From a virus (Duplodnaviria; Heunggongvirae; Uroviricota; Caudoviricetes): 64,000 nucleotides of DNA. The notes under the pieces are model-generated. The model was given only the letters and a program-made list of their open reading frames with translations. It had not been told where the DNA came from and did no database searches. Location of the stretch: IMG/VR virus record IMGVR_UViG_3300037089_000535, one strand, 5' to 3'. Made by a program: the position numbers and the translations under genes. Shown in pieces: positions 526 through 36,444 of the stretch; within the stretch, counting starts at the first letter, position 1, and each line of letters begins with the position of its first letter.

Positions 526-1374
526 ATGAAGAGTCACGAATTCGCTTCTGGAGTTTTACAGGGAGCTGATCACCGATACATTAGAACAAATTGTCAAGAT
601 GCAGTTCGTGTATTTAGCCGAACACTCCATGACAAGCTTTGGGGGAACAATACAGTTGTTGTCGGCGTTTGCGCTGACGGTTGCGGAACAGGCGAACACA
701 CAGAAGTTGGGGCGCAGCTTGGTGTTAATATTGCAACAGATGTAATATCAACAGAATATTTATCAGCTGCAAGTTTAGGTAATGAGGTTGATTGGAATAC
801 CATAAAAGACGATATTGTTGCTAGGGTTGGAAATATTGCACAGTCAGTATGGTCTCTTGAACAAGATTACAATGCGCTAATTATCGAGTACTTCTTTTTC
901 ACGATAATTGGTTTCGCAATGACCTCTGAAGAAACCACGTTCTTCCGTGCCGGCGATGGTGTTCTGATTGTCAATGGAGAAGATATCCCAATCAAAACGC
1001 CAGATGGTAACAGGCCAGAATATCTTGGCTACAATCTGTTGAGCAGTTCGATTCGACCTGATATCGAAATACTATTTAAAATTCCAACTGATAAAATTGA
1101 TCACTTCTTACTAGGCTCAGATGGATTGAAAGACATTTGCGCCGCAGAAGAAAAGCTCATCCCTAAGAAACAAGTGGGAACTCGCATCCCGAAGGAAGAA
1201 TTGGTTGGCCCTCTCAGTCAGTTCTGGACCGGGGATCAATACTTCGACGATCCCCAGGCGGTGCGCCGCAGACTGATGATGTTCAATGGTGGCCTTTGTG
1301 CTGATGCCAGGGCCGGCATTGCTCGCGATGACACTTCATTAGTTGTCTGCCGCCGCAGGAATTCAGAGCCATGA
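526..1374 (+). CDS. PP2C-family Ser/Thr phosphatase-like protein
   Basis: PP2C motifs are present: VCADGCGTG..GAQLG (DGxGG), RAGDGVLIV (GDSR-like) and LLGSDGLKD (SDGLwD). The stop overlaps the start of the next gene (ATGA). Confidence 0.5.
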   Translation: MKSHEFASGVLQGADHRYIRTNCQDAVRVFSRTLHDKLWGNNTVVVGVCADGCGTGEHTEVGAQLGVNIATDVISTEYLSAASLGNEVDWNTIKDDIVARVGNIAQSVWSLEQDYNALIIEYFFFTIIGFAMTSEETTFFRAGDGVLIVNGEDIPIKTPDGNRPEYLGYNLLSSSIRPDIEILFKIPTDKIDHFLLGSDGLKDICAAEEKLIPKKQVGTRIPKEELVGPLSQFWTGDQYFDDPQAVRRRLMMFNGGLCADARAGIARDDTSLVVCRRRNSEP

Positions 1375-3251
1375 TCAAAGAGGTCATTGTCGAAGCAGAC
1401 ATAATTAGACTGACGCCAAACTCAGTCAAGGGCGAGGGCGGCGAAGCAATAATCTATGGCTTGCCTGGAAAAAAAGCCCTGAAGATATTCAAGGAACCCG
1501 ATCATCCTGACTTTGCTGGAAAGCCAGAAGCTCAGCAAGCGGCATTGGCGAGAATCAATCAGCACCAAAAGAAGCTTCCCGCCATCCCAAAGAGTTTACC
1601 AAGTAGTGTTATCGTTCCGGATGCGCTTGCATTTACAACCGATCATTCAAAGAAGATAGCCGGTTACCGCATGCCATTCATTAGCGGCACAAACGTTCTG
1701 CTTGAATACGGCGATCAGGAATTCAGAGCTGGCATCTCAAATGATCGTGTTCGAAACGTCTTTGCAAAGATCCACGAGGCATTTGTTGGACTCCATGCGC
1801 ATAGAGTTATCCTTGGTGACGTCAACCCGCTGAACATCTTGGTGTTGGCGAAGTCGGATACGCCGTACATTATCGACATTGATAGTGCATCGATTGATGG
1901 CTTCCCGTCATTCATGTTCACGCAGGCCTATATCGATCCATTGCTGTGCGATCCGAGCCTGAAAGAACCAAAGCTAGTCAAGCATCACACTACCGATTCT
2001 GATTGGTATTCGTTCTGCGTCATGCTCATGCAGTGCATGCTCTTCGTTCATCCGTATGGCGGCATCTATAAGCCAGTTGACAAGACCAAAAAGATTGCGC
2101 ACACGGCAAGATGTCTGCACAAGATAAGCGTGTTCAATCCTGAAGTTGGGTATCCAAAGACAGCGATACATTACAGCGCGCTATCGGATGAATTGTGCCA
2201 CTATCTAATTGGCATCTTCGAGCAGGGAAAGCGTAGTGTCTTTCCGGTGAAGTGTTTAGAGGAAATGCGCTGGACAAAGTGCAACGTATGCGGACAAGAA
2301 TACTCTCGTTCCGCCTGCCCCAACTGCGTGAAGGCTCCGCCAATTGCCGTCATTCAAACCGTGACGGTTAGGAAGAGTGTCACCGTGACGCAGATGTTTA
2401 ATACCACCGGGTCTATCGTATTTGCAACGGTTCAAAGGGGAAGGATGCTCTGGCTCTACCACGAAGCAGATGCGTTCAGGCGCGAAGATCGTACCATCGC
2501 TCTTAAGCATGAGATCGATCCTCGGTTCAAGTACCGAATAAATGGCATCTCAACTGTCATCGGAAGGGATGGGTCCGTTGTCGTTCTCACCCCAAACAAA
2601 ACACCGGTACCGCTCCAGACTGACATCGTTGGTGAACGACCGGCATTCGACGCAAATGCCGACAGCATATTCTGGACAACCAATGATCGGCTGAATAGAA
2701 ACGCGCCATTAGGGCCTGAATATATTGGCGCAGTAATTTCTGGGTTGACACATATCTGGGTTGGTTCAACATTCGGATTTGGATTCTATCGCGCTGGAGA
2801 ATTGAACATAGCCTTCATCTTCAGGACGAATTCAAGAGGCATCAACGATAGTGTAAAGGTACCCAGGATTCGAGGACAACTCATAGATGCAACCTGTTCG
2901 TTTACCGAGAAGCTCTGTTGGTTCTTTACATCCTCCCAAGAGAGTGGACAGACCATCAATCGCTGCGCAGTCATTCAACATGATGGAACTGTCTTGGCTT
3001 CGGCCGAGGCCATTCATGGAGATGGTTCGTGGCTATCGGGAATTCGCGGAGCAACGGCGGCAGGTAATGTCTTGCTTGCTCCAACCGATGATGGTGTAGT
3101 TCAAGTGAAGTGCAACGGAAACCAAATTGTCATCGTAAAGGAATTCCCTGATACAGAACCGTTTGTCAATTCAGGATCAAGACTTTTCGCCGCAGCAGAT
3201 GGGCTTTACGTAGTCGGGCGGCGCGACATTGTAAAACTTAAGATCAGTTGA
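1371..3251 (+). CDS. Hanks-type protein kinase-like protein with C-terminal Zn-ribbon and beta-rich domain
   Basis: Kinase motifs are present: a Gly-rich loop plus Lys (VKGEGGEAIIYGL...ALKIFK), a catalytic-loop-like HAHRVILGDVNPLNILV and IIDIDSA (DFG-like). A CNVCGQEY...CPNC zinc ribbon follows. Translationally coupled to the upstream PP2C gene. Confidence 0.5.
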   Translation: MIKEVIVEADIIRLTPNSVKGEGGEAIIYGLPGKKALKIFKEPDHPDFAGKPEAQQAALARINQHQKKLPAIPKSLPSSVIVPDALAFTTDHSKKIAGYRMPFISGTNVLLEYGDQEFRAGISNDRVRNVFAKIHEAFVGLHAHRVILGDVNPLNILVLAKSDTPYIIDIDSASIDGFPSFMFTQAYIDPLLCDPSLKEPKLVKHHTTDSDWYSFCVMLMQCMLFVHPYGGIYKPVDKTKKIAHTARCLHKISVFNPEVGYPKTAIHYSALSDELCHYLIGIFEQGKRSVFPVKCLEEMRWTKCNVCGQEYSRSACPNCVKAPPIAVIQTVTVRKSVTVTQMFNTTGSIVFATVQRGRMLWLYHEADAFRREDRTIALKHEIDPRFKYRINGISTVIGRDGSVVVLTPNKTPVPLQTDIVGERPAFDANADSIFWTTNDRLNRNAPLGPEYIGAVISGLTHIWVGSTFGFGFYRAGELNIAFIFRTNSRGINDSVKVPRIRGQLIDATCSFTEKLCWFFTSSQESGQTINRCAVIQHDGTVLASAEAIHGDGSWLSGIRGATAAGNVLLAPTDDGVVQVKCNGNQIVIVKEFPDTEPFVNSGSRLFAAADGLYVVGRRDIVKLKIS

Positions 3252-3279: not shown

Positions 3280-4338
3280 ATGCAACGTTCTCTTCTTCCA
3301 CTACCGCCATTTTTCAACACAGCAAATGCGAACAACTGGGATTATAGTCCAAGCCTAGATAAGCTTCGACTCTTCGCAGAAGAGTGGCGTAGAGATCAAA
3401 AGATCAAAGCGTCTGCTGCGGCGAAGACGAAGGTCACCGCTCTCATCATCGATGCCAACAAAGACTTCTGCCATCCGCGCGGGACCTTGTTTGTCAGCGG
3501 GAGATCGGGAACCGGCGCTGTCGATGATAGCAATCGCATTGCTAAGTTCGTGTACGAAAATCTCGACGTGATTACGGACATCGTTCCTACGATGGATACC
3601 CATAAGCGTTACCAGATCTTCACACCAACCTTTTGGCAATGGGCCGATGGGACTCCAGTTCCGCAGAACCAGATCATCCCCACGGATCTTGTTGCCTCTG
3701 GGAAGATCAAGGTCATCCCCTCAATGGTCAACTTCATTCCAGGTGCAACAAGCACTTGGATCAATGACTATGTTGTGTACTATGCGCGCAAACTCGAAGC
3801 CGATGGCAAGAAAGTTCTCATTGCTTTCGCTCCGCATTGCGTTCTCGGAAGCGATGGCCATCCGATCATCGGAACCGTTTTCGAAGCCATCTCGTTTCAC
3901 TCCTTCGTGCGCCGCGTGGAGAATGATCCAGAAGTCAAGGGCGGCAACGTCCTCACTGAGTGTTTCAGTGTCCTTGGCCCAGAGGTGAAGGTTGCGCACG
4001 ACGGAACCATTCTAGACAACGGTGAGAATCGCATGCGCATGATCAAGGCATTGCTGGCCGCCAACTACGTCGTTATCATGGGTCAAGCATCAAGCCATTG
4101 CGTGGCAAGTACAATCGACGATCTGCTTACGTGGATCTTGGCTAACGATCCAAGCCTGGCCCAGAAGGTATATATTGCCGAGGATGGTATGTCGGCTGTT
4201 AACCTCAGCGCATACGGCGGGCCAGACTTTACCGATGCGGCCACAGCTGCGCTTGACAAGTTCCGCAATGCGGGAATGCATGTCGTTCGTCTGAGCGAAC
4301 GAATGGAAACCTGGCCCGGCTTTCAACTGGCAGCCTAA
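3280..4338 (+). CDS. Isochorismatase-family cysteine hydrolase, nicotinamidase (PncA)-like with insertions
   Basis: ALIIDANKDFCHPRGTLFVSG matches the PncA N-terminal motif. TMDTH and APHC are candidate metal ligands. VVIMGQASSHCVASTIDD matches the catalytic-Cys motif of the isochorismatase family. Confidence 0.55.
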   Translation: MQRSLLPLPPFFNTANANNWDYSPSLDKLRLFAEEWRRDQKIKASAAAKTKVTALIIDANKDFCHPRGTLFVSGRSGTGAVDDSNRIAKFVYENLDVITDIVPTMDTHKRYQIFTPTFWQWADGTPVPQNQIIPTDLVASGKIKVIPSMVNFIPGATSTWINDYVVYYARKLEADGKKVLIAFAPHCVLGSDGHPIIGTVFEAISFHSFVRRVENDPEVKGGNVLTECFSVLGPEVKVAHDGTILDNGENRMRMIKALLAANYVVIMGQASSHCVASTIDDLLTWILANDPSLAQKVYIAEDGMSAVNLSAYGGPDFTDAATAALDKFRNAGMHVVRLSERMETWPGFQLAA

Positions 4339-4380
4339 ATTGATTCGATCTAATAGAAACACAAAACAAGGAATACGAAT

Positions 4381-5202
4381 ATGAGTTCTAGCTCTAGTTT
4401 ATTTACGTCCTCAACACAGGATAAGAATGTCACGGCGGCTCTAGTCCAAATCCCAGACTTGACCGCCAAGATCCAAGCTGGGCAAGGAATGCCCGCGGTC
4501 AATGCAAAGGTAAGTACCGCATTGCTTATCCAGCTGCTTCTCGATGATTCTGGTTCTATGCAAAGAAAAGACCCAGACCCCAATGTAACAAAGTGCAACG
4601 CAGAGCTTCTCTGCGATGGACACAACCTAATTCGCAACACCCTGTTGAATAGCAAACAGGGCGCTGATGTGTTCATGGCCGCGCGTACCCTCAGTGGAGA
4701 GGTGGTCTATCCATTCCGTAAGCTCAAGGAAGTTCCCGAGCTAGTTTATCGGCAGAACTTCTATGCGAATGGTGGCACGCCGCTCTATGATGAAATCGCA
4801 GTCACCTACGAAATCGTTGCCAAGCAGGTGGATGATTACGAAGAGGCCTGTATTCCGTGCCGAACAATCACGGTATTCATCACCGATGGCAGGGACGAAC
4901 ATTCCAGGGCTTTCAATGCAGCTAAGGAGCTTCTTCCATTGACGGTGGCACGCATGAATCACGAGATGGACGTAATCGCTGGCGTCGGGATTAGCGACGG
5001 ATACTACGACTTCCGCAAGATGTTCTTGGAGATGGGTCTGTCTGACAATTGGATCTTGACACCAAAGAACACCGAGCACGAATTCCGTGAAGTCTTTCGT
5101 GTGCTCTCGCAGTCGGCACTGAACGTCAGCCAAGCCGGCGTGGGTGGGTTTAGCCAAGCAACTTCTAGTGGCCTAAGCCAAGCTGCTGGCGGCTTCATTT
5201 GA
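4381..5202 (+). CDS. von Willebrand factor A (vWA) domain protein
   Basis: MIDAS motif LLDDSGSM (DxSxS), GGTPLYD and VFITDGRD. A strong hairpin at 5212-5250 follows the gene. Confidence 0.55.
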   Translation: MSSSSSLFTSSTQDKNVTAALVQIPDLTAKIQAGQGMPAVNAKVSTALLIQLLLDDSGSMQRKDPDPNVTKCNAELLCDGHNLIRNTLLNSKQGADVFMAARTLSGEVVYPFRKLKEVPELVYRQNFYANGGTPLYDEIAVTYEIVAKQVDDYEEACIPCRTITVFITDGRDEHSRAFNAAKELLPLTVARMNHEMDVIAGVGISDGYYDFRKMFLEMGLSDNWILTPKNTEHEFREVFRVLSQSALNVSQAGVGGFSQATSSGLSQAAGGFI

Positions 5203-5261
5203 CAGTTGTTCATTCTGTTCGGCATCATTAAATTGGTGCCGAACAGAATCAGAGGTGAAAA

Positions 5262-6776
5262 ATGAAACTAGCCGGTACACTAAAGTGTGAAATAATCAAG
5301 CCGATTAATTCGGATGGAAAATCAATTTGGAACGAAGTCGGCCCAAGATTAATGGCCTTGAGAAAAACTTTAGCTCCGGCATTGACAATGACGATGCGGG
5401 AATTATATCCGCAAGCGGTTGGTGTCATTTACCTTTTTAAGTCGGGCAATAAGGACGAGGCTCGAACAGCTCAACAACAATGGACCGGCTTAGTTGAGAA
5501 GACATTGCGCAAGCATTGGAATGAAGAACTATTTGGGCGGCTCAATCACCTGAAAAGCAAACTTAAGGAAGAAGATGGAGAGGAACGTCTCAAAACCATT
5601 ACTTCTGCCAACGGTCCAATTCAGGAGTATTTATCTTCCGAGACACGCCACAACATCATATCCCGATGGAAGGGTGAACCATTTAAAGATCTGTTGGTTT
5701 CGAAAGTTTCGGTTCCATCATGGACAACTGGGTGTGCATTCTACGCCAGGAATCGCGAGTGCCCTGTTAGTGGAGACCCCGATAAGGCCCGATTGGGATT
5801 TCCTCTTTTCGGTGGTGGCAACAAACGAACAACACTGGTGGTGGCTCCCTGCGGTGATGGGCATGAAGCACTTTGGAAGAGGTTAGTTGCCGGCGAGATC
5901 AAGCTCGGTCATGTTGGAATTAGTTACAATCTTCGAAAACATAAGTGGTATGCATTAATCTCGTGGTTGGAGGAACGTGAAGAGAATATTTCTGGCTCAC
6001 ATGTTGCTGCGGTCAATATGGGAATCAATGTATTTTTGCAGGCGGTGTCAGATGACGGATCTGAATTCCATGTTGATGGCGGAGATATATTAGCTACCAG
6101 AAGACGATTTTATGGTCGTCGCAAGAGCATTCAGAAGTCTTTGGATAAGATGGGGAGAGGAGCACATGGACATGGGCGCAATCGATTGCTCCGTCCAATT
6201 ACGAATCTTGGCGATTGCGAATCAAGGTACATGTCCAGTAAGTGCAGAACAGTGGCGGCTGAACTCATCAAGTGGTGTGTTAGGCACAACATTGGTCGAT
6301 TGATTTTGGAGGATCTGAGTAGGATAAGGGAGACAGACGAAGCCAAAGATACTCATGAGGAAGTCAAGCGACTAATTCATTCATGGCCTTATGCTGAATT
6401 AACTGCTGCGATTACCAGACAAGGTGCTGAGTTTGGAGTCTCCATCGAAACTCGGGAAGCCTACTATAATAGTCAGCGATGTCCTATTTGCGGACACACC
6501 CATCAGGACAATGTTCGAATCATTGAAGACCGCAGAGACATCATGGTTGATTCCGAGGGAAGGAGATGGGAAAGAAGTTTGAGCAAAAGATCATTCTTCA
6601 CTTGTAAAAAGTGTGACTTCGATGCAAGTGGAGATTTGGTTTCGGCGTCTAATCTACTTCAATCTGTAACAGGATATAGCTCTATTCTCACGACTAAAAA
6701 TAAGGCTAACCACAAGGCCACTAACAAAAGCAAAGCCAAGGGTGATCGGGCTATGGAGTCACCAGGAGAATCATGA
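5262..6776 (+). CDS. TnpB/Cas12-like RuvC-fold protein (compact type V-like effector candidate); RuvC-I Asp apparently replaced by Asn
   Basis: RuvC-I-like AAVNMGINV aligns to the GIDLG motif with N in place of D. RuvC-II RLILEDLS has the Glu. A Zn finger CPICGH...CKKC is present. RuvC-III FDASGDLVSASNL is ADxNAAxNI-like. The Arg/Lys-rich RRRFYGRRKSIQKSL...HGHGRNRLL is typical of TnpB. A GGTGA ribosome-binding site lies upstream. The gene sits immediately upstream of a CRISPR array. Confidence 0.7.
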   Translation: MKLAGTLKCEIIKPINSDGKSIWNEVGPRLMALRKTLAPALTMTMRELYPQAVGVIYLFKSGNKDEARTAQQQWTGLVEKTLRKHWNEELFGRLNHLKSKLKEEDGEERLKTITSANGPIQEYLSSETRHNIISRWKGEPFKDLLVSKVSVPSWTTGCAFYARNRECPVSGDPDKARLGFPLFGGGNKRTTLVVAPCGDGHEALWKRLVAGEIKLGHVGISYNLRKHKWYALISWLEEREENISGSHVAAVNMGINVFLQAVSDDGSEFHVDGGDILATRRRFYGRRKSIQKSLDKMGRGAHGHGRNRLLRPITNLGDCESRYMSSKCRTVAAELIKWCVRHNIGRLILEDLSRIRETDEAKDTHEEVKRLIHSWPYAELTAAITRQGAEFGVSIETREAYYNSQRCPICGHTHQDNVRIIEDRRDIMVDSEGRRWERSLSKRSFFTCKKCDFDASGDLVSASNLLQSVTGYSSILTTKNKANHKATNKSKAKGDRAMESPGES

Positions 6777-7396
6777 CCGAACTAACAAACGAAGAAAAAC
6801 TTAAACTGGAACGACTTCGTGAGCGATGTATTATAATTCAAGGACTCTTGAAGCGATGGCATGAGTCTGCGGTTGAAATTGTGATTGCCCTCAAAGAAGT
6901 TGATGATGAAGGTGATTGGAAGCTGTCCTATCCCAGCTTTGATAATTTTTTGGAGCGTAACTTTCCGAATTCTGGTTTTGGGCTTAAGAGATATCAGCAC
7001 ACACTGCTTTCGATTCAAGAGTATGGTGAGGAGCTGGTTAGAAAGATTGGCCCTGAAGCGGCCCATGTGATGTCGCACCCAAGAATTACCGAGGAGCCAG
7101 CACGAAAGAATGAAATAATTTCGAATGTTAATAACTACATGGAGGCCAATGGTAACGCCCCTAATGCGGATTGGGTGCGCGAACAGCGAAAGAGAATAGC
7201 ACCCGAAACAAATCAGCCACCAAGATCCACTATAGCAATGTCTGCGCTGGGAAGGACCTGCAAAGAGCGTGATGAATGGAGGCGAAAGTTCGAGGAGCTA
7301 CAGGTAAAATACGATAGTGCTGTGAGTGAAATTGAACAACTCCGTAAGCAACTAGGGAAAAATGCGAGCACCTCTACTTCTGATATGGTTTCATAA
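6773..7396 (+). CDS. Hypothetical protein, translationally coupled to Cas12-like gene (possible accessory)
   Basis: ATGA stop/start overlap with the Cas12-like gene. The ORF ends 70 nt before the first CRISPR repeat. No recognisable motif. Confidence 0.4.
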   Translation: MTELTNEEKLKLERLRERCIIIQGLLKRWHESAVEIVIALKEVDDEGDWKLSYPSFDNFLERNFPNSGFGLKRYQHTLLSIQEYGEELVRKIGPEAAHVMSHPRITEEPARKNEIISNVNNYMEANGNAPNADWVREQRKRIAPETNQPPRSTIAMSALGRTCKERDEWRRKFEELQVKYDSAVSEIEQLRKQLGKNASTSTSDMVS

Positions 7397-7465
7397 GGGC
7401 TAATTTTAGCACCGCTCGCAAACCATATTCTAGTTCTTTGAAAATTCAGCGTTTTTGACGGCAGG

Positions 7466-8261
7466 GTATCAGTAACCTTCGAGAGATTCAGTTGATGTGA
7501 GTTGACGAACGTCAGACCTACCGAAGCATTGGCAAAGTATCAGTAACCTTCGAGAGATTCAGTTGATGTGAGATTGAGAGTAGCCGTCGCACACCATCCG
7601 GGGATCTGGTATCAGTAACCTTCGAGAGATTCAGTTGATGTGAGATCAAATGAATGACGACGATGACAACGACGACGAGTATCAGTAACCTTCGAGAGAT
7701 TCAGTTGATGTGAGGCTAAGTCCCAAGGTCACTCTAAATCTTGGAACAAGTATCAGTAACCTTCGAGAGATTCAGTTGATGTGAGCTCCTACAAGCTCCG
7801 GCGACTCCATTGGGGCTGCGATGTATCAGTAACCTTCGAGAGATTCAGTTGATGTGAGTAGTAGTTGTTTCGCCTGTGCAATCCAGCTTTGACAAGTATC
7901 AGTAACCTTCGAGAGATTCAGTTGATGTGAGAATCCGCCGGTAGTGGATCATGCCACGGGGGACACGTATCAGTAACCTTCGAGAGATTCAGTTGATGTG
8001 AGAAAAGAATGGACACATGTATTTGATACGTGTTCTGGTATCAGTAACCTTCGAGAGATTCAGTTGATGTGAGAGCGAAATCGACCCACCCCCCTCCAGA
8101 CGTATCAGTAACCTTCGAGAGATTCAGTTGATGTGAGGTGTTAGAGTGCCCACATTGTCATGATGCTGATGACGTATCAGTAACCTTCGATAGATTCAGT
8201 TGATGTGAGAAGATGGACGCGAATGGTATCAGTAACCTTCGAGAGATTCAGTTGATGTGAG
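7466..8261 (+). CRISPR. CRISPR array: 12 repeats of 36 nt (GTATCAGTAACCTTCGAGAGATTCAGTTGATGTGAG), 11 spacers of 16-37 nt
   Basis: Exact repeats start at 7466, 7537, 7609, 7679, 7750, 7823, 7896, 7967, 8038, 8102, 8174 and 8226. Repeat 11 carries a G->T substitution (cgaTagatt). Spacer 9 is 28 nt and spacer 11 is 16 nt. Confidence 0.93.
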
Positions 8262-8367: not shown

Positions 8368-10317
8368 CTACTTCAATTGGCTTAGTTCGCTGACGAAGCC
8401 ACCAGACAAAACAGGGAACCTGCACCACGTCTTAGGATCAAGATTATGGTTGTCTACGTGGAACGCTATAGCGTAGCGCTCTCTTTTCCATTGATTGCGC
8501 ACCCACATTGTAAAGAACTTCCTTACATACGAAATTGCCAATGGGTTGTCGGGCCTTTCGCGACGCAGACAATTGAGCACCTCTTGTGGTCCCTTCTTCT
8601 CCAGGATGGCCCACGTTTCAATGGCATCGAGAATATCGTAAGGCATCAGATCATCCTCGTCTGTCTGGCCTTGTCCTGGGCGTAACTCAGCCGTTGGCTT
8701 CTGACTCACGATACCCTTCAGTGATGGATAATCCGTGACCATCGTGTTCAACCATTCGAGCAAGAACGCCTTGTCGATGCCGCCGATAGGGGCAATGGAT
8801 CCTGCGGTGTCTCCATCCATCGTGCAATAACCAACGGCAGCCTCTGAGCGGTTGCTGGTAGTGATTAGAAGCTTGCCCTCTAGGTTAGCTACCATCCAAA
8901 TGCTTGGGGCTCGTGCACGGGCCTGGATATTCTGCAACGCAATATCATCATGCTCCCAGGTCAGAGCGCGGCCCTCAACTTGTTCTGCTAGGGCTATGTA
9001 TTGTTTAACGATGGCATCGATATCGATCACAGAGAATTTGGCACCAATCTCATTAGCCACGGCCCTAGCCGCTTCAAGAGTTGTTGTTGAGCTGTTCGAT
9101 GTGGACTGATACACGCAGGTAAGAAGCTTCTCAACAAGCACTCTTCGACCATGAATCAGGTATTGTTTAATTAAATCTTCATCTATTGGAATGTTGAATT
9201 GATTGAGAGCATCTTCAATGCCTTGAGATTCATTAATAACACGCCTAATCATCAGAGATACCAGCGAGGCACATGCGGCCGAATCAGCGCCTCCGCTAAG
9301 AGAAACCACAAACCCTTTTGAATGTGACTTCTCCAAATAATCAAACAGCCCCAATGTAATTGCGAGGGTAAACTCTTGATGCTTAGTGAATGATTCGCTC
9401 TGTATTGGCTTGGTTGCTTTTTCATCACAGGCAATATTTTTTATTTCATTAACAAGACCTTGAGTATAATCAACTACGCCGCCAGCTTCTAAATCTGGAG
9501 AGAAGCTAGCTGTGGCAATCGCTCTGGTTTTGATTAATGAAAGATCAATGACGGCTGTTGTTAAATTTACCTTGGCCATATTTAGGAATGGGCCGCGAGC
9601 TAGTAAATCGCCGCCGCTTGCGACAATACAATCGCCATCATAAATGGCACGACCCGCTTCATTACCAAGAAGATTTGCATAAATGTAGGCTACATTAAAT
9701 GCCCGCGAGCCCTCAACAACAAGTCTCTCTCTAGTAACTCGTTTTCCGAAAGCAAAGTGAGATGCCGATGGATTCAAAATAATGTTGACGCCTCTTCGCG
9801 CTAAAGCGTTACCCGGCCGCTCTGCAACGAAAGCGTCTTCGCAAATCTCAAAGCCTATATGTACGCCATCGATATAGAAAACCAAATCCCCAATCACATA
9901 ACCAGGACCCTCTATAACCAATTTGGCTGGCCATGGCTTGAACCATCGTGGTTCGTAATGAAGGCCGTCACCCGCTAGGTGTTGCTTGGGAACGATGCCT
10001 ATGATTTTCTCATCATAAACACAGACCATTACGTTGTACAAGCAGTTGCACCACAGAAATGGTATGCCAAAACAAGTAAAGATTCCGCTTGTTTGTGGTA
10101 GTAGATCGCATACTATTTCCCAAGCTGTAGTTATAACTTGCTCTGATAGGAAGTGATCTTCGCAACCATATCCGGTGATTGCCATTTCGGGCAAACAAAG
10201 AACTTTCACGCCAGCTCTTCTGGCTTCACCTAGAGCGTCGATGATGTTATGCTTGTTGCGCTCCCAATCGAGAGGCGTTTGATTCAAGGTCGCCGCACCA
10301 ACTTTGAGGTTTGACAT
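8368..10317 (-). CDS. nadE: Glutamine-dependent NAD+ synthetase (N-terminal CN-hydrolase domain + NAD synthase domain)
   Basis: An N-terminal nitrilase-like domain (LCLPEMAITGYGCED) is followed by the PP-loop SLSGGADSAACASL. 649 aa. Several short opposite-strand ORFs inside it are judged spurious. Confidence 0.85.
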   Translation of the reverse strand: MSNLKVGAATLNQTPLDWERNKHNIIDALGEARRAGVKVLCLPEMAITGYGCEDHFLSEQVITTAWEIVCDLLPQTSGIFTCFGIPFLWCNCLYNVMVCVYDEKIIGIVPKQHLAGDGLHYEPRWFKPWPAKLVIEGPGYVIGDLVFYIDGVHIGFEICEDAFVAERPGNALARRGVNIILNPSASHFAFGKRVTRERLVVEGSRAFNVAYIYANLLGNEAGRAIYDGDCIVASGGDLLARGPFLNMAKVNLTTAVIDLSLIKTRAIATASFSPDLEAGGVVDYTQGLVNEIKNIACDEKATKPIQSESFTKHQEFTLAITLGLFDYLEKSHSKGFVVSLSGGADSAACASLVSLMIRRVINESQGIEDALNQFNIPIDEDLIKQYLIHGRRVLVEKLLTCVYQSTSNSSTTTLEAARAVANEIGAKFSVIDIDAIVKQYIALAEQVEGRALTWEHDDIALQNIQARARAPSIWMVANLEGKLLITTSNRSEAAVGYCTMDGDTAGSIAPIGGIDKAFLLEWLNTMVTDYPSLKGIVSQKPTAELRPGQGQTDEDDLMPYDILDAIETWAILEKKGPQEVLNCLRRERPDNPLAISYVRKFFTMWVRNQWKRERYAIAFHVDNHNLDPKTWCRFPVLSGGFVSELSQLK

Positions 10318-10479: not shown

Positions 10480-11973
10480 TCATAGCGAGATGTTAAAGTT
10501 CGCTTGGCGATTCGCTTTGCAGATGTCAACCAATGCTTGTGTAGCTGGCGAATACTGCGGTGGGATGTTGAGTCCCAGAGCTGCCGCTTTGAAGTTTGGT
10601 TCGTAATTTGTAAGACAGTTGCCCGCGTTTAGGCGATAGTAATTCGGAATGACCTCGCCCTCTTGCCCGATGATCCCAACTGGAACCTCCGGACTGATGT
10701 GCATGGGATGCGGGCGATAGACAACTGGGAGCCCCGGCACAGATTGTTTGCCGCTCTCGGCCTCATCTCCGAATTTCATAGTGGCTACGCTACCGCTCTT
10801 CGACAGCTTCCAGACGCCAGCCACATCATCGCGCCTGAATGTTTTCCACGTAGGCTCTACCAAATATCCGCCGTAGCCATATGACTGACGATCAGGCGAC
10901 CACTCCATTGTCTCGCGATACTTCTCGAACCGAATCGTCTTCTCTAGATTCCACCCGCTCTCCAAGATGAGTTGCGGCAACAGACCAAGGCGCAAGCATT
11001 CTGTTATGGTATAGAAGTAGTGGTTCTTGATTCGTTCTTCTGAGTCGAAACGAATGCCAGCGTTTCGATCAGGACGCTCTTGAATTGCGAGCAGTGCCGC
11101 CGGGATTCCAGATCGAATTGAATCAAACGTATCTGGTAAGTATGAAATGAAACCCGGGAATCGATCGCGCATTGTGATGAATGAATGGTAGTCACTGCCA
11201 AAGCGTTGAATGTGCTCGTGCCCCATCGTGCCTACCGGAATCATTCCAAGCTCTTTGGCTAGGTAGACATTCGATGTGCGCAGGATACCGGCCTCTTTGA
11301 TAGCGCTGAGGGCAATTTTGTGTTGTGCCATGCACGACACGGCACGCATTCCAACCTCAAAGATGCGATCAGGATTACCGCCAACAGCTTCCACCAAGGC
11401 TTTGGCTTTGGCCAAGATGCTTTGATAGTACTCGTCGGTTCGCACTTCAACCTCTGGTATTTTGCTACCGGCAAACAGACAAGCATTGAGAATGAGTTCT
11501 TTCTCTTCTTCGCATGTAGCGAACATCTTGTCTGGCAAGGCTCGAACCTTGGCCTGAGTTGCGACTTGAATAGTGAAGTTGAGCATGAGTGCTGTTGGCT
11601 CTAGCCAGCTTGAAACAGCCGATGGGCCAGTAACGGAGAAGGCCGGCTCTCGGCTATAGAACCAAGAACCCTCGGGAATGGACGATACCTTTACCGTATC
11701 GACCATTGAGAATGCTTTGCGATACGCCGCGCCAACTGCATAGGAGTTGGCTTCGAGGTATGAATAATCTTCGGCAAGCTCTTTCATTGGCTGGTGTGCA
11801 TCCGGAAGAAGGCCTTTGACGTACTTCGCTGCATCTATCGGCAGGAAATGCCAGCCGTAATGCCCGCCGCGCCGATGGGTGTAGTAAAATGTTTCCGTCC
11901 TTAACGGAAAGCCAGCTTCGGCCATCGAGAATTTGTACCCATCTGTCATTGTTATTCTCACATCAACTCGCAT
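10480..11973 (-). CDS. Nicotinate phosphoribosyltransferase-family protein (PncB-like; NAMPT not excluded)
   Basis: TDGYKFSM N-terminal motif and IPVGTMGHEHIQRF (cf. NAPRT GTMAHS). The first 6-8 codons of the tracked ORF fall inside a CRISPR-repeat relic. A more plausible start is Met9 (ATG at 11949-11947) with a GTGAGA SD-like sequence 7 nt upstream. Confidence 0.65.
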   Translation of the reverse strand: MRVDVRITMTDGYKFSMAEAGFPLRTETFYYTHRRGGHYGWHFLPIDAAKYVKGLLPDAHQPMKELAEDYSYLEANSYAVGAAYRKAFSMVDTVKVSSIPEGSWFYSREPAFSVTGPSAVSSWLEPTALMLNFTIQVATQAKVRALPDKMFATCEEEKELILNACLFAGSKIPEVEVRTDEYYQSILAKAKALVEAVGGNPDRIFEVGMRAVSCMAQHKIALSAIKEAGILRTSNVYLAKELGMIPVGTMGHEHIQRFGSDYHSFITMRDRFPGFISYLPDTFDSIRSGIPAALLAIQERPDRNAGIRFDSEERIKNHYFYTITECLRLGLLPQLILESGWNLEKTIRFEKYRETMEWSPDRQSYGYGGYLVEPTWKTFRRDDVAGVWKLSKSGSVATMKFGDEAESGKQSVPGLPVVYRPHPMHISPEVPVGIIGQEGEVIPNYYRLNAGNCLTNYEPNFKAAALGLNIPPQYSPATQALVDICKANRQANFNISL

Positions 11974-11992
11974 CTCTCGAAGGTTACTGCTT
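11957..11992 (-). repeat. Degenerate inverted copy of the CRISPR repeat (~29/36 nt)
   Basis: ctcacatcaactCGCatctctcgaaggttactgCTTTAC compared with the reverse complement of the repeat, CTCACATCAACTGAATCTCTCGAAGGTTACTGATAC. Confidence 0.7.
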
Positions 11993-12050
11993 TACAGCAA
12001 GCTCTGGATCTGTGCAATTGCAAAGTGTCTTTAGTCAGCTATTAAAGTCA

Positions 12051-12080
12051 AATGGCCCACTGATAAATCAGTGGGCCATT
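12051..12080. other. Perfect 13-bp-stem hairpin (AATGGCCCACTGA-TAAA-TCAGTGGGCCATT)
   Basis: Exact inverted repeat with a 4-nt loop, immediately 5' of a repeat-like copy. No clear U-tract on either strand. Confidence 0.6.
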
Positions 12081-12082
12081 CT

Positions 12083-12120
12083 TCAGTAACCTTCGAGAGA
12101 TCAGTCATTCAACGAGTGAG
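12083..12120 (+). repeat. Degenerate direct-orientation copy of the CRISPR repeat
   Basis: tcagtaaccttcgagaga-tcagtcattcaacgagtgag compared with TCAGTAACCTTCGAGAGATTCAGTTGATGTGAG. Confidence 0.55.
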
Positions 12121-12332
12121 CTTGATCCTCAATTGAGGACTCCTCGCGTTTAGGCCATGTGATTGGCCTGCAAGTAAACCTTACTATAAGATACAAAAAA
12201 GTCAAGTAGTCTTTGCGAAATACTTACACCTACCCACATCAACGCAACTATACCAGCTGAGAGACTATCGTTGATTGTGTACAGCAAGCCCACGCTTCAT
12301 ATCGATCGCGATCATCGTCGTTCCTCCTTACT

Positions 12333-12369
12333 CTCACATCAACTGAAATCTCTCGAAGGTTACTGATAC
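12333..12369 (-). repeat. Near-perfect inverted copy of the CRISPR repeat (one extra A); candidate anti-repeat or solitary repeat unit
   Basis: ctcacatcaactgaAatctctcgaaggttactgatac equals the reverse complement of the repeat plus a 1-nt insertion. It lies 110 nt upstream of the 12479 ORF. Confidence 0.8.
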
Positions 12370-12478
12370 GTACTACGCATCCTTGAGCGGTTCGCATGTA
12401 GTGCCTGGCCCATGTGACTGTCCGGGATATTTGGCCGAACCGGCCGAGTTTGCCTTGGAAGACTTGGAAGAGAAATAG

Positions 12479-15926: not shown

Positions 15927-18344
15927 TTATTTCGTTGCTACCCTAACTCCATCTAATGTTATTGAGGTTGCTCCTGTAATAACAATCGTATGGGTTGCTG
16001 GTGCCGGTGTTGGTACCGGGGCGGGTGGAGTTGGAACTGGCACCGGCGCTGGAGGCGGCGTTGGGGTTGGGGCTGGTGGTGCAGGCGTAGGCGTAACCGT
16101 TTGCAACGCTGCCAACAACTTGGTCCCAACTGGGACACCAACACCAGTACAGGCATCCCAACCTACACGAGCGGCATAGGTTCCGTTGTTGCCGGTGATA
16201 ATATCTCTATACCATCCTGTCAATGAATAGAGTGCTGAGTTTAGATAGCCAACATTCTTTCCAAGGGCCTGTGTTAAACAGGCCGCTAAAGCCGCCCATA
16301 GAGGCGCTACTGCACTCGTTCCACCGATAACATAGTTCTGACCATCGACAATAACATTCCAACCGCTATTTGGATCTGCATTACCGGCAACGTCAGGAAC
16401 GCCACGATACTTTCCGCCAGGAACATTTGCTTTTGCTTGATAGGTTGGAATGGCAAACAGGGAACTAACGCCACCGCCAGTTGCCTCTCCTCCTCCATCA
16501 TTCCATACAACTTCAGTTGTCGTGTTCAAAGCAGGAAGGCTGGTACCTCCACAGGCCAGAACAAGTGGCGATGATGATGGAAAGTCAACGTGGTTTCCAG
16601 ATTCGCCATCACCTGAACCTCCGTCGCCGGCTGCCACTGTTACAGTAATCCCGGCAGTAGCTGCACGCTGGAATGCGGTATTGAAATTGGCAATCGATGT
16701 AGAACTCCATTGATCTTCAGGTGAGTTGCCACACCATGAAACCATGCCCTTTCTACGAACAAACATGATATGGTTGGGCACTGTCAAACAGTATACAAAG
16801 TCATCATAATCAGCTTCATAGCGCTTAGTGAGGCGTTCTGTTTTGTATGTCTCTTTGATATTTACTCGATATTCTATATGTCTGGTTATACCCTTTGCGT
16901 TTTTCCTGCCTCGACGATCAATTGTTTTGATAGACCCAACAAAGCCGAGTTTCAAAAGCAACTCTTGTACACCATCTGCAAGCATCTTTGAAGATGTATA
17001 GTACGCCTGCTTGCCTTTTCCATTCCGAGTCCCATCTCCCAACATAAGAGCATCATATAATATTCTTAATTGTTGTGGGCAGGCCGATAAAATATGAGGT
17101 GGAATAAATTTTTCCCATGACTTACCAAACTTAGCTAGCCCCAAACACAATTCACGATTGCAACAACTCCATCCGTGTCCATTACGGTTGAATTTGAATG
17201 GCATTTTATCAAGACAACGTTGAATCTGCGCAACCTTTTCTGGATTTGAAATTTGTGATATTCCGGTCGAATATGTTTGCTCATCAAATGCCTTGGCTTG
17301 ATATTCTGTTTGTATTATTTCTATTGGTGTATCCTTATGGCGTTTTGCAAAAGTGCCATCGTGCATTCGCTCTATTCTTTGGTTTAGGAATCGTGGTCGT
17401 TTTTTGACAAAGGTGCGTTCTTTATGGTGTGTAACTCCAATACTGGTGTGTCCTTCGGATAGAAAGTAGCCCATGAATTCAAGGTAAAGATCTGCATTAA
17501 TATTTTTACCACCTAAAGTTACCGTCTTTAGCTCCTCACCATTCCATAACGCCGTCTTAGGCACATAACACCAATTATTAGAGAAAATCTCTTCTGATGG
17601 ATATAAATCAGCTTGATGCTTCGCACGTTTCACATACATCATATGATTAGGTGTAACCATCAAATCGGTGCAACTCCCTTGGTAATGGTGCATTTTACCT
17701 TTGTAATGATACTTGTGAGTTTTTTGAATAGGTTGATATTCTAATTCTCCTGTACTGGGATTTAATGTAGCAATCAGCTCATCTCCGTTAATATTCTGGA
17801 AATAACGCCATCCTGTATTTGTTAACACTTCGGTCTCGTTGTCATAACAACCCCAAGAGATACTGATTGCGGTCATATCATCAGTAATAGCCTGGTTGAT
17901 TGCGTCCAAGAAGCCAGCGTCTGTATTTGGGGCCATGTAGCAGTGAAGCTCTGCACCAGGGGCCATTGCACCAATGATACATAGGTCGAGCATTACTTCG
18001 CCATCAGCTCCATTAGGATCGCCGGGAGCGTTCTTTGCCCCATCGATGCCATGAAATACTACTGGCTTTACTGTTAGTCCAAGGGAAGTAAAATACTTAT
18101 TTAGATCTGCTTGAACGTAGCCACCTCCCAATTCAATAACTGCAACTTTGGTTCCAACTCCTGTTGCGTTCGTTGGGAAGCCATAAAATGTGGCCAATTG
18201 CTTTGGGTTATAGCTAACGCTTGTAGCGCGAGATCCGGCGAATGGTCTATGTCCAATCTGTGGAGGAATTGGTGGGCGTCTATTACCTGTGGTGGGTAAT
18301 GCTGCTGCGCCTTTAAATCTCCTGATATATGATATTAGTTGCAT
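15927..18344 (-). CDS. Sedolisin/subtilase-like (S53/S8) serine peptidase interrupted by an intein; C-terminal Pro/Thr-rich linker plus small domain
   Basis: Extein motifs ISISWG|SPEDQW (SxSWGxxE), AAGDGGSGDG and GGTSAVAPLWAAL (catalytic Ser). The insertion begins with Cys right after SWG and ends ..WCGN before Ser. The C-terminus is PTPAPPAPTPTPPPAPVPVPTPPAPVPTPAP. Confidence 0.75.
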   Translation of the reverse strand: MQLISYIRRFKGAAALPTTGNRRPPIPPQIGHRPFAGSRATSVSYNPKQLATFYGFPTNATGVGTKVAVIELGGGYVQADLNKYFTSLGLTVKPVVFHGIDGAKNAPGDPNGADGEVMLDLCIIGAMAPGAELHCYMAPNTDAGFLDAINQAITDDMTAISISWGCYDNETEVLTNTGWRYFQNINGDELIATLNPSTGELEYQPIQKTHKYHYKGKMHHYQGSCTDLMVTPNHMMYVKRAKHQADLYPSEEIFSNNWCYVPKTALWNGEELKTVTLGGKNINADLYLEFMGYFLSEGHTSIGVTHHKERTFVKKRPRFLNQRIERMHDGTFAKRHKDTPIEIIQTEYQAKAFDEQTYSTGISQISNPEKVAQIQRCLDKMPFKFNRNGHGWSCCNRELCLGLAKFGKSWEKFIPPHILSACPQQLRILYDALMLGDGTRNGKGKQAYYTSSKMLADGVQELLLKLGFVGSIKTIDRRGRKNAKGITRHIEYRVNIKETYKTERLTKRYEADYDDFVYCLTVPNHIMFVRRKGMVSWCGNSPEDQWSSTSIANFNTAFQRAATAGITVTVAAGDGGSGDGESGNHVDFPSSSPLVLACGGTSLPALNTTTEVVWNDGGGEATGGGVSSLFAIPTYQAKANVPGGKYRGVPDVAGNADPNSGWNVIVDGQNYVIGGTSAVAPLWAALAACLTQALGKNVGYLNSALYSLTGWYRDIITGNNGTYAARVGWDACTGVGVPVGTKLLAALQTVTPTPAPPAPTPTPPPAPVPVPTPPAPVPTPAPATHTIVITGATSITLDGVRVATK
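16725..17849 (-). mobile_element. Intein (~375 aa) with LAGLIDADG homing-endonuclease domain inside the peptidase gene
   Basis: Begins with Cys (CYDNETEVL) after SWG and ends GN before Ser. Internal LEFMGYFLSEGHTS and LYDALMLGDGTRNG are LAGLIDADG-like blocks. Removing it restores the sedolisin SWGSPE motif. Confidence 0.65.
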
Positions 18345-19661: not shown

Positions 19662-19964
19662 TTGGATACGTATACATTATTTGTAATAAGCAGTTTTGAT
19701 CTTACTAAATTTGGTTGTCCTCATTGTGGATCTATAAATGGTAGTGTCTTATTAATCAATGGAACTTGCTTCATATGGAACTGTGATGATTGCGCCGAAG
19801 AATGTGCAGTTGTTGGAAAATCAGTTGATAAAATGTCTCAGTTTGTAATTAGAAACACTGATATCAAAGACCTTATTGGCCAACATCCTTACCAAGAAGA
19901 TTACAAAATAAACACTTTCGCTCTTAGGGTTAACAATATTCCACTTAACGGAGTTGTTCAATAA
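19662..19964 (+). CDS. Small Cys-rich (Zn-ribbon-like) hypothetical protein; stop codon lies inside mini-array repeat
   Basis: CPHCGS...CFIWNCDDCAEEC. Its TAA stop is part of the degenerate first repeat of the mini-array. Confidence 0.3.
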   Translation: MDTYTLFVISSFDLTKFGCPHCGSINGSVLLINGTCFIWNCDDCAEECAVVGKSVDKMSQFVIRNTDIKDLIGQHPYQEDYKINTFALRVNNIPLNGVVQ

Positions 19965-20062
19965 CCTTCGAGAGATTCAGTTGATGTGAGGTGTTAGAGT
20001 GCCCACATTGTCATGATGCTGATGACGTATCAGTAACCTTCGAGAGATTCAGTTGATGTGAG
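19955..20062 (+). CRISPR. Mini CRISPR array: degenerate repeat, 36-nt spacer identical to main-array spacer 10, then a perfect repeat
   Basis: R1' is 19955-19990 with a divergent 5' part. The spacer at 19991-20026 is gtgttagagtgcccacattgtcatgatgctgatgac, identical to 8138-8173. R2 at 20027-20062 is an exact copy of the repeat. Confidence 0.8.
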
Positions 20063-20113: not shown

Positions 20114-20148
20114 GAGGGGCGGAAATAAACCGCCCCTCGATTTGTTTG
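20114..20148 (+). terminator. Rho-independent terminator
   Basis: Stem GAGGGGCGG-aaataaa-CCGCCCCTC followed by gatttgtttg. Confidence 0.7.
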
Positions 20149-26328: not shown

Positions 26329-27192
26329 ATGAAATCATATCTAGATATCGTTAAAAAAATCTTTGACGTTGGAGTTTGTAAACAGAACAGAACCGGTGTT
26401 GATGCTATTACATTGCCAGGAGCAATGTTCGAACATGATATGAGCGAGGGTTTTCCTTTGCTGACAACCAAGTCAGTGCCATTGCGTCTCATCTCGTCTG
26501 AGCTTGAGTTCTTTATCAAAGGAATCACTGATAAAGAATGGCTTCAAGAGCGCAACAATCACATTTGGGATGAGTGGTGTAATCCAGATCTGGTTCCGTA
26601 TGGTCACGATGAAGAAACTAAAGCCAAGATGAAAGCCGAGAGAGATCTTGGATGTGTGTATGGTTTTCAATGGCGTAACTTCGGGGCACAATATATAGAT
26701 TATAAAACTCCGCCTGTTGGTGGGTTTGATCAGCTTGGCAGCATGGTCAAGAAGCTGAAGTCTGATCCATCTGATCGAAGAATGATTGTATCAGCGTGGA
26801 GCCCGAAAGACTTCCACAGCATGGCGCTGCCACCTTGTCACTACGGATTTCAAGTAACTGTTGTTGATGGCAAGCTTAACCTGCTTTGGAACCAACGCAG
26901 CGTAGATACAGCTCTTGGTTTGCCATTCAACATCGCAAGTTACGGTTTGCTACTTCATCTTCTAGCCAAGGAATCAAACCTTCAAGAAGGTCGGTTGGTT
27001 GGATTTCTTGCTGATACACACATCTATGTCAATCATATTGATGGTATGAAGATGCAATTGCGGCGCGAACCTTACAAGTTGCCGCACATTGTTACGGACA
27101 ATTTCTCAGACATCTTCTCTTGGAGCTACACAGATTCTAAAGTTGAAGATTACCGTCATCACGAGAAGATTGCTTTCGAAATAGCAGTATGA
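26329..27192 (+). CDS. thyA: Thymidylate synthase
   Basis: RMIVSAWSPKDFHSMALPPCHYGFQ (active-site Cys) and DTALGLPFNIASYGLLLHLLA. Confidence 0.9.
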   Translation: MKSYLDIVKKIFDVGVCKQNRTGVDAITLPGAMFEHDMSEGFPLLTTKSVPLRLISSELEFFIKGITDKEWLQERNNHIWDEWCNPDLVPYGHDEETKAKMKAERDLGCVYGFQWRNFGAQYIDYKTPPVGGFDQLGSMVKKLKSDPSDRRMIVSAWSPKDFHSMALPPCHYGFQVTVVDGKLNLLWNQRSVDTALGLPFNIASYGLLLHLLAKESNLQEGRLVGFLADTHIYVNHIDGMKMQLRREPYKLPHIVTDNFSDIFSWSYTDSKVEDYRHHEKIAFEIAV

Positions 27193-36048: not shown

Positions 36049-36444
36049 TTGGTGATCATGACAAAACGCCCAACCAAATTTGGAACAACTGTCCCTGAAT
36101 TGAAGGAAGTGATTGCCAAATACGGCTGTGGATTAGGTAGTGATCCACCTTATGTAGTGGTTGGCGAGTTCAATTCCAAGACAAAAGGGCCGTATGCGGG
36201 CATCCTGGCGGCCGCCCTAAACCAATTCCACGCCTACCTTATATGGCGTGAGGTCAACAAGAACGGCCGGGCGGACGTCAAGAGATCAGAATTCCATCCA
36301 AAGACAAATTTCTCCATCGCCCGCTACAAGCAACAACTTCGGGAAAAGATGGAAGCCGCCAAGCTGGCAGAGCAACAGCCAACAGAACCACGGCCCCGCC
36401 CGCGGATTGTATCGTGGTCTGGTAAAGAGAAAGAAAACGCATAA
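36049..36444 (+). CDS. Hypothetical protein
   Basis: ORF. Confidence 0.3.
   Translation: MVIMTKRPTKFGTTVPELKEVIAKYGCGLGSDPPYVVVGEFNSKTKGPYAGILAAALNQFHAYLIWREVNKNGRADVKRSEFHPKTNFSIARYKQQLREKMEAAKLAEQQPTEPRPRPRIVSWSGKEKENA

Follow-up and report, generated by a model that had tools for sequence, protein, structure and literature searches.

A 64,000-nucleotide stretch of viral DNA (IMG/VR record IMGVR_UViG_3300037089_000535, Caudoviricetes), referred to here as the window, encodes on its plus strand a compact Cas12f-like effector, a second, smaller protein, and a CRISPR array. The effector has lost the first catalytic Asp of its RuvC domain, as have all of its aligned relatives; the second gene, or one of similar size, follows the effector gene in every close-family locus that was fetched; and one spacer of the array matches a structural gene of a different virus perfectly. 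We propose, tentatively and with somewhat less than even confidence, that the locus is a phage type V system lacking an adaptation module, which would bind the DNA of rival phages without cutting it, much as Cas12m does, and in which the second protein, hereafter the partner, would serve as a cofactor. The parts of the system are:

5262-6776, plus strand: effector gene, 504-residue Cas12f-like protein (triad Asn252/Glu350/Asp458; zinc finger C407, C410, C448 and C451)
6773-7396, plus strand: partner gene, 207 amino acids, its start overlapping the effector stop (ATGA)
7397-7465, plus strand: leader region, 69 nucleotides from the partner stop codon to the first repeat
7466-8261, plus strand: CRISPR array, 12 repeats of 36 nucleotides (GTATCAGTAACCTTCGAGAGATTCAGTTGATGTGAG) and 11 spacers
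7932-7966, plus strand: spacer 7, a 35/35 match to a head-morphogenesis gene of IMGVR_UViG_3300046505_000054

In the proposed mechanism, the array would give rise to CRISPR RNAs (crRNAs), each made up of the conserved 3' part of the 36-nucleotide repeat and a spacer of about 35 nucleotides, possibly assisted by an anti-repeat resembling a trans-activating CRISPR RNA (tracrRNA). The crRNA would direct the effector to matching DNA of competing phages, where Asn (His in relatives) in place of the first RuvC Asp would lead to a stable R-loop, most likely without a cut. The bound effector would then block transcription and/or replication of the rival genome, as Cas12m does. We infer the lack of cleavage, the silencing, the role of the partner and the architecture of the guide RNA from the observations given below.

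A Cas12f-lineage effector without the RuvC-I aspartate

The effector matched the Cas12f1-like TNB domain of Pfam (PF07282) with an E value of 1e-7 and 32.3 bits, above the cut-off of 26.3, and the PADLOC models of Cas12u3 (E 3e-40) and Cas12f (E 2e-38) with near full-length coverage. It scored 92 bits against the NCBIfam model guided_TnpB, slightly below the 100-bit cut-off, and 14 bits against NCBIfam Cas12k, for which the cut-off is 150. When the sequences of the PDB were searched with phmmer, it resembled AsCas12f (E 3e-19). An AlphaFold 2 model based on an alignment of 17 homologues (mean predicted local distance difference test score, pLDDT, 81.8) had AsCas12f ternary complexes as its best Foldseek matches in the PDB (E about 1e-22), with other Cas12f entries, dCas12f (9n9c; 5e-16) and, much lower, Cas12m2 and TnpB ranking beneath them. 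The zinc finger (C407-x2-C410...C448-x2-C451) and the motifs LILE350DL and GD458LVSASNL are all present. By sequence and by fold, the effector is a member of the Cas12f lineage, but it does not carry the canonical Asp-Glu-Asp triad. A sequence-only reading of this DNA had described a compact 504-residue protein of the TnpB/Cas12 fold with a zinc finger, a RuvC-II Glu in LILEDL and a RuvC-III Asp in GDLVSASNL; the family searches, the model and the structural matches bear this description out.

HMMER alignments to three solved Cas12f proteins placed VAAVN252MGIN on imgiDlgv with maximal posterior marks, LILE350DL on qmEDL, and GD458LVSASNL on naDynaarni. Since Asn252 is aligned to the RuvC-I Asp of all three proteins, the triad of the effector is Asn-Glu-Asp. 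A homologue search yielded 17 further proteins of the family (34-58% identity), and the corresponding residues were read in 16 of them and in the window protein, giving 17 aligned sequences:

RuvC-I position: Asn in 14, His in 3, Asp or Glu in 0
RuvC-II position: Glu in 14, Pro in 2 (P0008 and P0009), His in 1 (P0014)
RuvC-III position (Asp458): Asp in 17 of 17
Four zinc-finger Cys: invariant

The triad variants within the family are N/E/D, H/E/D, H/P/D and N/H/D. As the RuvC-I Asp is absent from 17/17 sequences, its loss is an old, selected trait of the family and no recent lesion. The Asp-to-Asn change that the sequence-only reading had reported is thus upheld, both by the HMMER alignment and by the non-acidic residue in every relative. 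That reading had also named the nearby SDDGSEF segment as a possible source of a genuine acid at this position. The check was run, and the segment was ruled out as an alternative RuvC-I Asp, as it forms a standard turn after the first RuvC strand and is not conserved as acidic, with S, K or G in some homologues. Because the RuvC-II Glu has been lost as well in three members, and at least one of these, P0008 (His/Pro/Asp; locus L007), retains the partner gene and a 3-repeat array, canonical two-metal catalysis seems to be dispensable in this family.

Nucleases of the RNase H fold use the RuvC-I Asp to bind metal and become inactive when it is replaced. The family-wide loss of this Asp, together with the loss of the RuvC-II Glu in members of which at least one has kept partner and array, is therefore the basis for reading the effector as a protein that does not cut. 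A precedent is provided by Cas12m2, which has His at the RuvC-I position (triad HDD, with NED or DND in other Cas12m clades) and does not cleave; its site coordinates one Mg2+ and holds the non-target strand (PMC10442227). Type V-M has likewise been described as undergoing gradual inactivation (PMC10691335). By analogy with Cas12m2, Glu350 and Asp458 of the effector may hold the displaced strand via one metal ion, with the invariant Asp458 serving binding and not catalysis.

However, several points weigh against this reading of the effector. Glu350 is kept in 14/17 and Asp458 in 17/17 sequences, which could mean that a non-canonical site is still active, and Glu320 is invariant across the family, where AsCas12f has Ile. 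A general warning has been given that conserved altered catalytic sites may stay active (PMC10691335). It is thus conceivable, though in our view unlikely, that the effector is still a nuclease with a non-canonical Asn/His-Glu-Asp site, possibly aided by Glu320, which cuts or nicks rival-phage DNA like Cas12r. The intact zinc finger and RuvC architecture would suit such an enzyme, as would the link drawn between conserved catalytic alterations and retained activity in the paper that terms the V-U24 group, to which we return below, 'noncanonical' and not inactivated (PMC10691335). The phage-encoded, compact Cas12r itself depends on RuvC activity (bioRxiv 10.64898/2026.04.20.719267). The replaced RuvC-I Asp, the three members without the RuvC-II Glu and the example of Cas12m2 argue against continued cleavage.

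The partner gene and its linkage to the effector

The sequence-only reading had placed the effector directly upstream of the array; this has to be corrected, as the real 207-residue partner gene intervenes. Both the window and L007 show the ATGA overlap between the two genes. The effector gene is followed by a gene of about 190-250 codons in 10/10 distinct close-family loci (the window, L006, L007/L008/L011, L009, L010, L012, L013, L014, L022 and L023/L024). Its homology to the partner was established by alignment or family search for L006, L007, L009, L010 and L014 and by eye for L012 and L013; for L022 and L023, the assignment is by gene size and position only. The array is placed between the effector gene and the partner gene in L009 and L013. 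Effector and partner identities drop in parallel, being 58/38, 52/33, 43/33 and 39/24%.

An exhaustive HMMER search of 1.8 billion representatives returned only 43 relatives of the partner. Its AlphaFold 2 model (pLDDT 95) consists of an all-helical N-terminal domain (residues 6-142) and a single long C-terminal helix (residues 151-200). The top Foldseek matches are Noc/ParB DNA-binding domains, at non-significant E values of about 1, and the C-terminal helix (leucine zipper or coiled coil) matches leucine zippers. One sequence relative, P0049 (E 1e-9), is a fusion in which the partner-like part follows, at the C-terminal end, a full ParB that has ParB_N and HTH_ParB domains. No ParB_N match was obtained for the partner in Pfam, the N-terminal ParB/Srx CTPase domain being present only in the P0049 fusion. 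With moderate confidence, short of certainty, the model and these matches suggest a ParB/KorB-type helix-turn-helix (HTH) domain joined to a zipper for dimerisation, the CTPase domain of ParB being absent. Both KorB and ParB are known as silencers and organisers of DNA. The idea that the 207-residue open reading frame (ORF) is spurious and hides a tracrRNA was ruled out by the 43 relatives, the conserved residues and the pLDDT 95 model.

In the reading that we favour, the partner would most likely be a cofactor: by binding double-stranded DNA next to the R-loop, or bridging DNA there, it would strengthen, extend or bridge the block. Alternatively, with an effector that binds without cutting, the partner might regulate its own locus (as an Aca-like autorepressor), or be a phage DNA-binding protein of unrelated function that happens to be encoded beside the effector; we consider this rather improbable. 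One indication comes from the dCas12f-sigmaE loci, where the HTH protein recognises an inverted repeat that precedes its own gene, is dispensable for targeting, and proved to be an autoregulator of the locus and not a cofactor (PMC13472631). Two features upstream of the effector gene of the window bear on this question:

5199-5228, plus strand: candidate sigma-70-like promoter TTGACA-18-CATCAT, weak, from a consensus scan
5213-5248, no strand assigned: perfect 12-bp inverted repeat TTCTGTTCGGCA-N12-TGCCGAACAGAA, which overlaps the candidate promoter and stops 14 nucleotides short of the effector start

The promoter scan found 1 site where about 5 were expected by chance in the region, and so provides no evidence alone. 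The inverted repeat could be an operator, as a locus regulator might use, or the terminator of the upstream gene; its sequence is not conserved at the other loci, which argues against a regulator. A similar hairpin, (G/A)GCGAG(G)-N6-8-(C)CTCGC(C/T), lies about 130-160 nucleotides upstream of the effector start in L009, L013 and L014.

Distant partner-like proteins also occur away from effectors: P0049, which is on a phage-like contig, and another such protein have no neighbouring effector, and Virus Rctr197k has a related effector with an array and no partner. These cases, like the autoregulator of the dCas12f-sigmaE loci, count against a role as cofactor. On the other side, effector and partner are paired in 10/10 close-family loci across 34-58% effector identity, their identities fall together, and the array can be situated between both genes. 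This linkage suggests an unstudied two-protein mode of RNA-guided silencing or DNA organisation, which parallels TasA-TasParB in an unrelated family. A bolder version, to which we attach a low probability, would make the effector an RNA-specified 'parS' that recruits the dimeric partner onto rival DNA, where spreading, bridging or condensing would silence or mis-segregate the competitor at a distance. If this were true, it would amount, alongside the independent pairing of nuclease-less TIGR-TasA with a ParB-like protein (PMC12045711), to a general, undescribed principle, the RNA-guided recruitment of partition-type proteins in conflicts between viruses.

The array, its targets and the outlying repeat copies

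Eleven repeats of the array are exact and one has a single mismatch, so that the clean 12-repeat array of the sequence-only reading is indeed present. The full repeat occurs in 13 copies across the window; chance would give none, and 100 shuffles gave 0. The spacers are, in order, 35, 36, 34, 35, 37, 37, 35, 35, 28, 36 and 16 nucleotides long. Both shortened spacers and the repeat with the mismatch are found towards the 3' end, which fits a 5' leader and transcription in the plus direction, the same as that of the genes. The array of the window genome is identical on other contigs except for a 7-nucleotide deletion in spacer 9; this spacer (8074-8101) has 28 nucleotides in the window and 35 in contig L001, and spacer 11 (8210-8225) has 16. 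Arrays are also present in L007, L009, L012, L013 and L022. The one in L012 (2859-3442) is unevenly spaced, with 45-74 nucleotides from start to start, and contains near-duplicate spacers, which suggests change through duplication and deletion rather than acquisition.

The protospacer of spacer 7 is part of a head-morphogenesis gene of the SPP1 gp7 / Mu F type, on a contig with further genes for portal, protease, major head and tail sheath proteins. The target virus and the window have a single common protein, at 52% identity, and the target is therefore a different phage. As spacer 7 is in the sense of the gene, the crRNA is predicted to base-pair with the template strand. On its 5' side the protospacer is flanked by ...CTGGGAT, and no protospacer adjacent motif or strand rule is derivable from one protospacer only. 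Extension of the target phage via its head protein gave only short contigs or no DNA. Matches of spacer 7 in genomes were rejected as targets, being partial matches of 20-22 nucleotides with 8 mismatches over the full spacer.

For the remaining spacers, exact-match scans found nothing for spacers 1, 2, 4, 5, 6 and 10 in viral contigs, for spacers 2 and 10 in metagenome contigs (arrays excluded), or for spacer 5 in genome contigs. Among deposited phages, there were only low-complexity chance matches to spacer 3 and none to the spacers of the L009 array. That a target was found for only 1/11 spacers also counts against the reading that we favour. Of the host and competitor silencing envisaged in the sequence-only reading, targeting of a competitor is supported by the single perfect protospacer, which belongs to another virus, and the search gave no target in a host.

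Copies of the repeat also occur elsewhere in the window:

11957-11989, minus strand: solitary repeat copy, about 94% identical, ending 7 nucleotides upstream of an in-frame ATG in a 497-residue ORF
12084-12120, plus strand: degenerate repeat copy, its 5' 18 nucleotides exact; together with 11957-11989 it makes up a long inverted repeat that encloses a strong hairpin (12051-12080)
12333-12369, minus strand: nearly full repeat copy with one inserted base, a candidate anti-repeat
19955-20062, plus strand: second mini-array 12 kb away from the main one, in which spacer 10 recurs exactly between a degenerate and a perfect repeat

Three solitary repeat copies sit in the divergent intergenic region 11974-12478. 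The RNA of the region that holds the 11957-11989/12084-12120 inverted repeat has a folding energy of -84 kcal/mol (z -7.6), and 12333-12369, read on the plus strand, complements the repeat more strongly than any other site within the window's first 25 kb. The mini-array is followed by about 50 nucleotides of unique sequence and then by a strong terminator hairpin (20114-20138). Spacer 10 reads ...ECPHC..., and the frame immediately upstream of the mini-array includes GCPHCG. The 497-residue ORF downstream of the array had been labelled a nicotinamide phosphoribosyltransferase; the label was withdrawn, as there is no Pfam match. The outlying copies could be genes for a tracrRNA or a fused guide, remnants of array recombination, or RNA processing sites.

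These copies also raise the alternative that the system mainly regulates genes of its own phage or host, like TldR or dCas12f, with guides from the array and from the solitary repeats at ~12 kb and ~20 kb. Repeat copies are present in two intergenic regions, one of them ending just ahead of a start codon and one outlying repeat preceding a Shine-Dalgarno sequence and a short ORF, and the array is nearly static between samples. However, no spacer matches the rest of the 64-kb window, apart from the spacer 10 duplicate in the mini-array, and the sequences after the solitary repeats have no match elsewhere in it. The single scan of host genomes with a spacer of unassigned target (spacer 5) found nothing, and the sole target is a structural gene of a different virus. 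We therefore regard regulation of self or host as the main function as highly improbable.

With respect to the guide RNA, the 3' ends of the repeats, read on the effector strand, are alike across loci: the window, L009 and L013 have TCAG-G/T-TG...GAG. Single half-repeats consisting of this conserved 3' part are found in L009 and L013. Both observations fit a type V crRNA with its handle 5' of the spacer. Anti-repeats were sought by a same-strand scan for the sequence that forms the best RNA duplex with the repeat of each locus:

Window, 12333-12369 and 11957-11989: some 4 kb away from the array, z about -10 to -11
L012, 3577-3607: downstream of the array, z -8.6, complementing the 5' part of the repeat
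L022, 4701-4713: 93-105 nucleotides upstream of the effector, z -5.2
L013, 5947-5959: 42-54 nucleotides upstream of the effector, z -4.1

L009 has an 11-nucleotide complement of its repeat (9911-9921) at 80-90 nucleotides upstream of the effector, which was not its top match. In L009, L013 and L022 the complementarity is to the conserved 3' part of the locus's own repeat. Judged from complementarity, these sites are possible tracrRNA anti-repeats that covary with the repeat, at positions that vary among the loci. The repeats by themselves fold weakly, and no common repeat-internal stem is supported, as 5'/3' pairing occurs in differing registers with energies no better than those of shuffled sequences. 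An Rfam scan of the window revealed no known RNA family beyond two tRNAs.

Genomic setting and relation to known systems

The exact effector protein is found on at least 16 contigs; those listed are from ENA, JGI and Logan metagenome assemblies, the longest being 108.5 kb. Genes in the window encode a glutamine-dependent NAD synthase, an FtsH-like M41 protease, an SPFH protein, a vWA protein, thymidylate synthase, an NAD-dependent DNA ligase, an RtcB ligase, a Thg1-like tRNA-His guanylyltransferase and HNH endonucleases; there are also a LAGLIDADG-containing ORF and two tRNAs (Ser and Asp). No virion genes were found within the 64-kb window, so that its origin from a large phage, which is likely, is deduced from gene content. 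The term 'phage' used in the sequence-only reading is thus supported by the viral or prophage-like nature of homologous loci, and for the window itself it is indirect. Among these loci, L007/L011 belongs to an IMG/VR genome of 85 kb in which a terminase, a portal and a protease are encoded, L012 and L013 are on IMG/VR viral contigs, and L009 is a prophage-like region with an integrase gene in a Polyangiaceae metagenome-assembled genome.

The NAD synthase, thymidylate synthase, M41 protease, DNA ligase, guanylyltransferase and RtcB genes and the tRNAs provide auxiliary functions typical of large phages, which were observed at 8368-10317 (minus strand), 26329-27192, 33113-35041, 36444-38360, 41065-41850, 44464-45879 and 57970-58467. 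An 805-residue ORF (15927-18344, minus strand) has LAGLIDADG in mid-protein and a weak match to a thymidylate-synthase-family PHROG at its N-terminus, and may hold an intein. Some 2-5 kb upstream of the effector, the interval 526-3251 (plus strand) holds genes for a PP2C-type phosphatase and for a protein-kinase-like protein, the latter going by a weak entry in Pfam.

Cas1, Cas2, Cas4, TnpA and Tn7 families are absent from the Pfam records of the genes called within 10 kb of the effector in five loci (the window and four homologous ones). The earlier statement that cas1, cas2 and tnpA are missing from the window accordingly holds only for the 10 kb on either side of the effector. No sigma-factor Pfam entry lies next to the effector in these five loci, the only one being a 'faint' Sigma70_r4_2 2.6 kb downstream in L007, beside the terminase. 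A distant relative of 467 residues (28% identity, His-Glu-Asp) is encoded at 3498-4901 of Virus Rctr197k (L025, GenBank KX853510.1, 197 kb), together with a 4-repeat array at 5139-5393; they are annotated only as 'transposase-like protein' and 'CRISPR'.

Natural non-cutting Cas12 proteins were already known, and the group described here seems to have been catalogued before. What is new is the viral or prophage-like context of the homologues, the probable fold and zipper of the partner and its strict linkage to the effector, the stepwise loss of triad residues, the first target, and the scattered repeats. If the effector binds without cutting, it would be: a natural, very small (504 residues), programmable DNA binder of the Cas12f lineage with a complete C-terminus and a normal array; and a case in which one virus silences another, competing virus by means of a non-cutting CRISPR effector. 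Possible uses would be as a compact scaffold for CRISPR interference and as a test case for stepwise RuvC decay, in which Asn or His comes first, the Glu goes next and the Asp is kept.

Cas12f (type V-F, including the former V-U3; AsCas12f, PDB 8j12, 7wju and 8dzj) resembles the effector in sequence, in fold and in its WED-REC-RuvC-zinc-finger architecture, and it has, like the window system, an adjacent same-strand array with 36-nucleotide repeats. Cas12f cleaves double-stranded DNA under RNA guidance as an asymmetric homodimer. In contrast to Cas12f, the family of the window has Asn or His at RuvC-I throughout, an effector about 80-100 residues longer through helical insertions, a ParB/KorB-like partner gene, viral or prophage-like contigs, and no evident tracrRNA in a fixed position.

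Cas12m, which typically occurs in bacteria or on plasmids, has no known partner protein, unlike the window system. It is likened to our model because it is compact, has a non-canonical triad, shows graded loss of catalytic residues within the family, and silences mobile elements by tight binding without cutting. However, it belongs to a different lineage: Cas12m2 (PDB 8hhl) was only the 23rd Foldseek match of the effector (E 1e-10, template modelling score 0.39), and Cas12m2 structures, which scored 0.34-0.42, all came after the Cas12f entries. The sequence-only reading had cited TldR and Cas12k as precedents, but Cas12m is closer, with its HDD- or NED-type triads and its silencing without cutting (PMC10442227). 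TldR, which derives from TnpB, has no array, carries its guide in its own 3' region and lies beside fliC/oppF-type neighbours, whereas the window has an array and viral or prophage-like neighbours. As for Cas12k and the V-K CRISPR-associated transposons, the tnsB, tnsC and tniQ families are absent from the Pfam records within 10 kb in the five loci.

Cas12r of the Thermus Lalka phages is, like the effector, a compact (564 residues) phage protein derived from TnpB, with a short array and no adaptation module, and is aimed at other mobile elements. It differs in that its RuvC domain is active (D238A abolishes interference), in its TnpB branch, and in that no partner has been reported (bioRxiv 10.64898/2026.04.20.719267). 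A parallel logic is seen in TIGR-TasA with TasParB, where a nuclease-less, RNA-guided DNA binder of phages forms an operon with a C-terminally dimerising ParB-like protein, and the guide arrays lie upstream, downstream or between both genes (PMC12045711). The RNA-guided protein is unrelated there, being a Nop-domain Tas protein and not RuvC/TnpB, and TasParB is reported to match ParB CTPase domains (PMC12045711), which the partner in the window does not have.

The dCas12f-sigmaE system (PDB 9n9c; Foldseek E 5e-16) has a protein that is derived from Cas12f, has a broken RuvC site and is linked to HTH proteins, as the effector probably is (PMC13472631). However, dCas12f is C-terminally truncated, without RuvC-III and the zinc finger, whereas the C-terminus of the effector is complete. 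The dCas12f genes lie beside an extracytoplasmic function sigma factor (rpoE), have mostly lost their arrays, and activate host genes in Bacteroidota; the window system has kept a full array and has no adjacent sigma factor.

The nearest described counterpart is V-U24, a CRISPR-associated Cas12 group that was mentioned in one sentence as having a non-canonical RuvC-I and an associated HTH protein (PMC10691335, Altae-Tran et al. 2023), and that is mentioned in no other paper of the literature searched. The family of the window has both of these features, the second by the likely fold of its partner, and probably is V-U24, to which it was matched by the published description only. Since that paper gives no viral context, targets, partner fold or function, the one-line note of 2023 now gains a concrete locus, a probable partner fold, a viral context and a first target.

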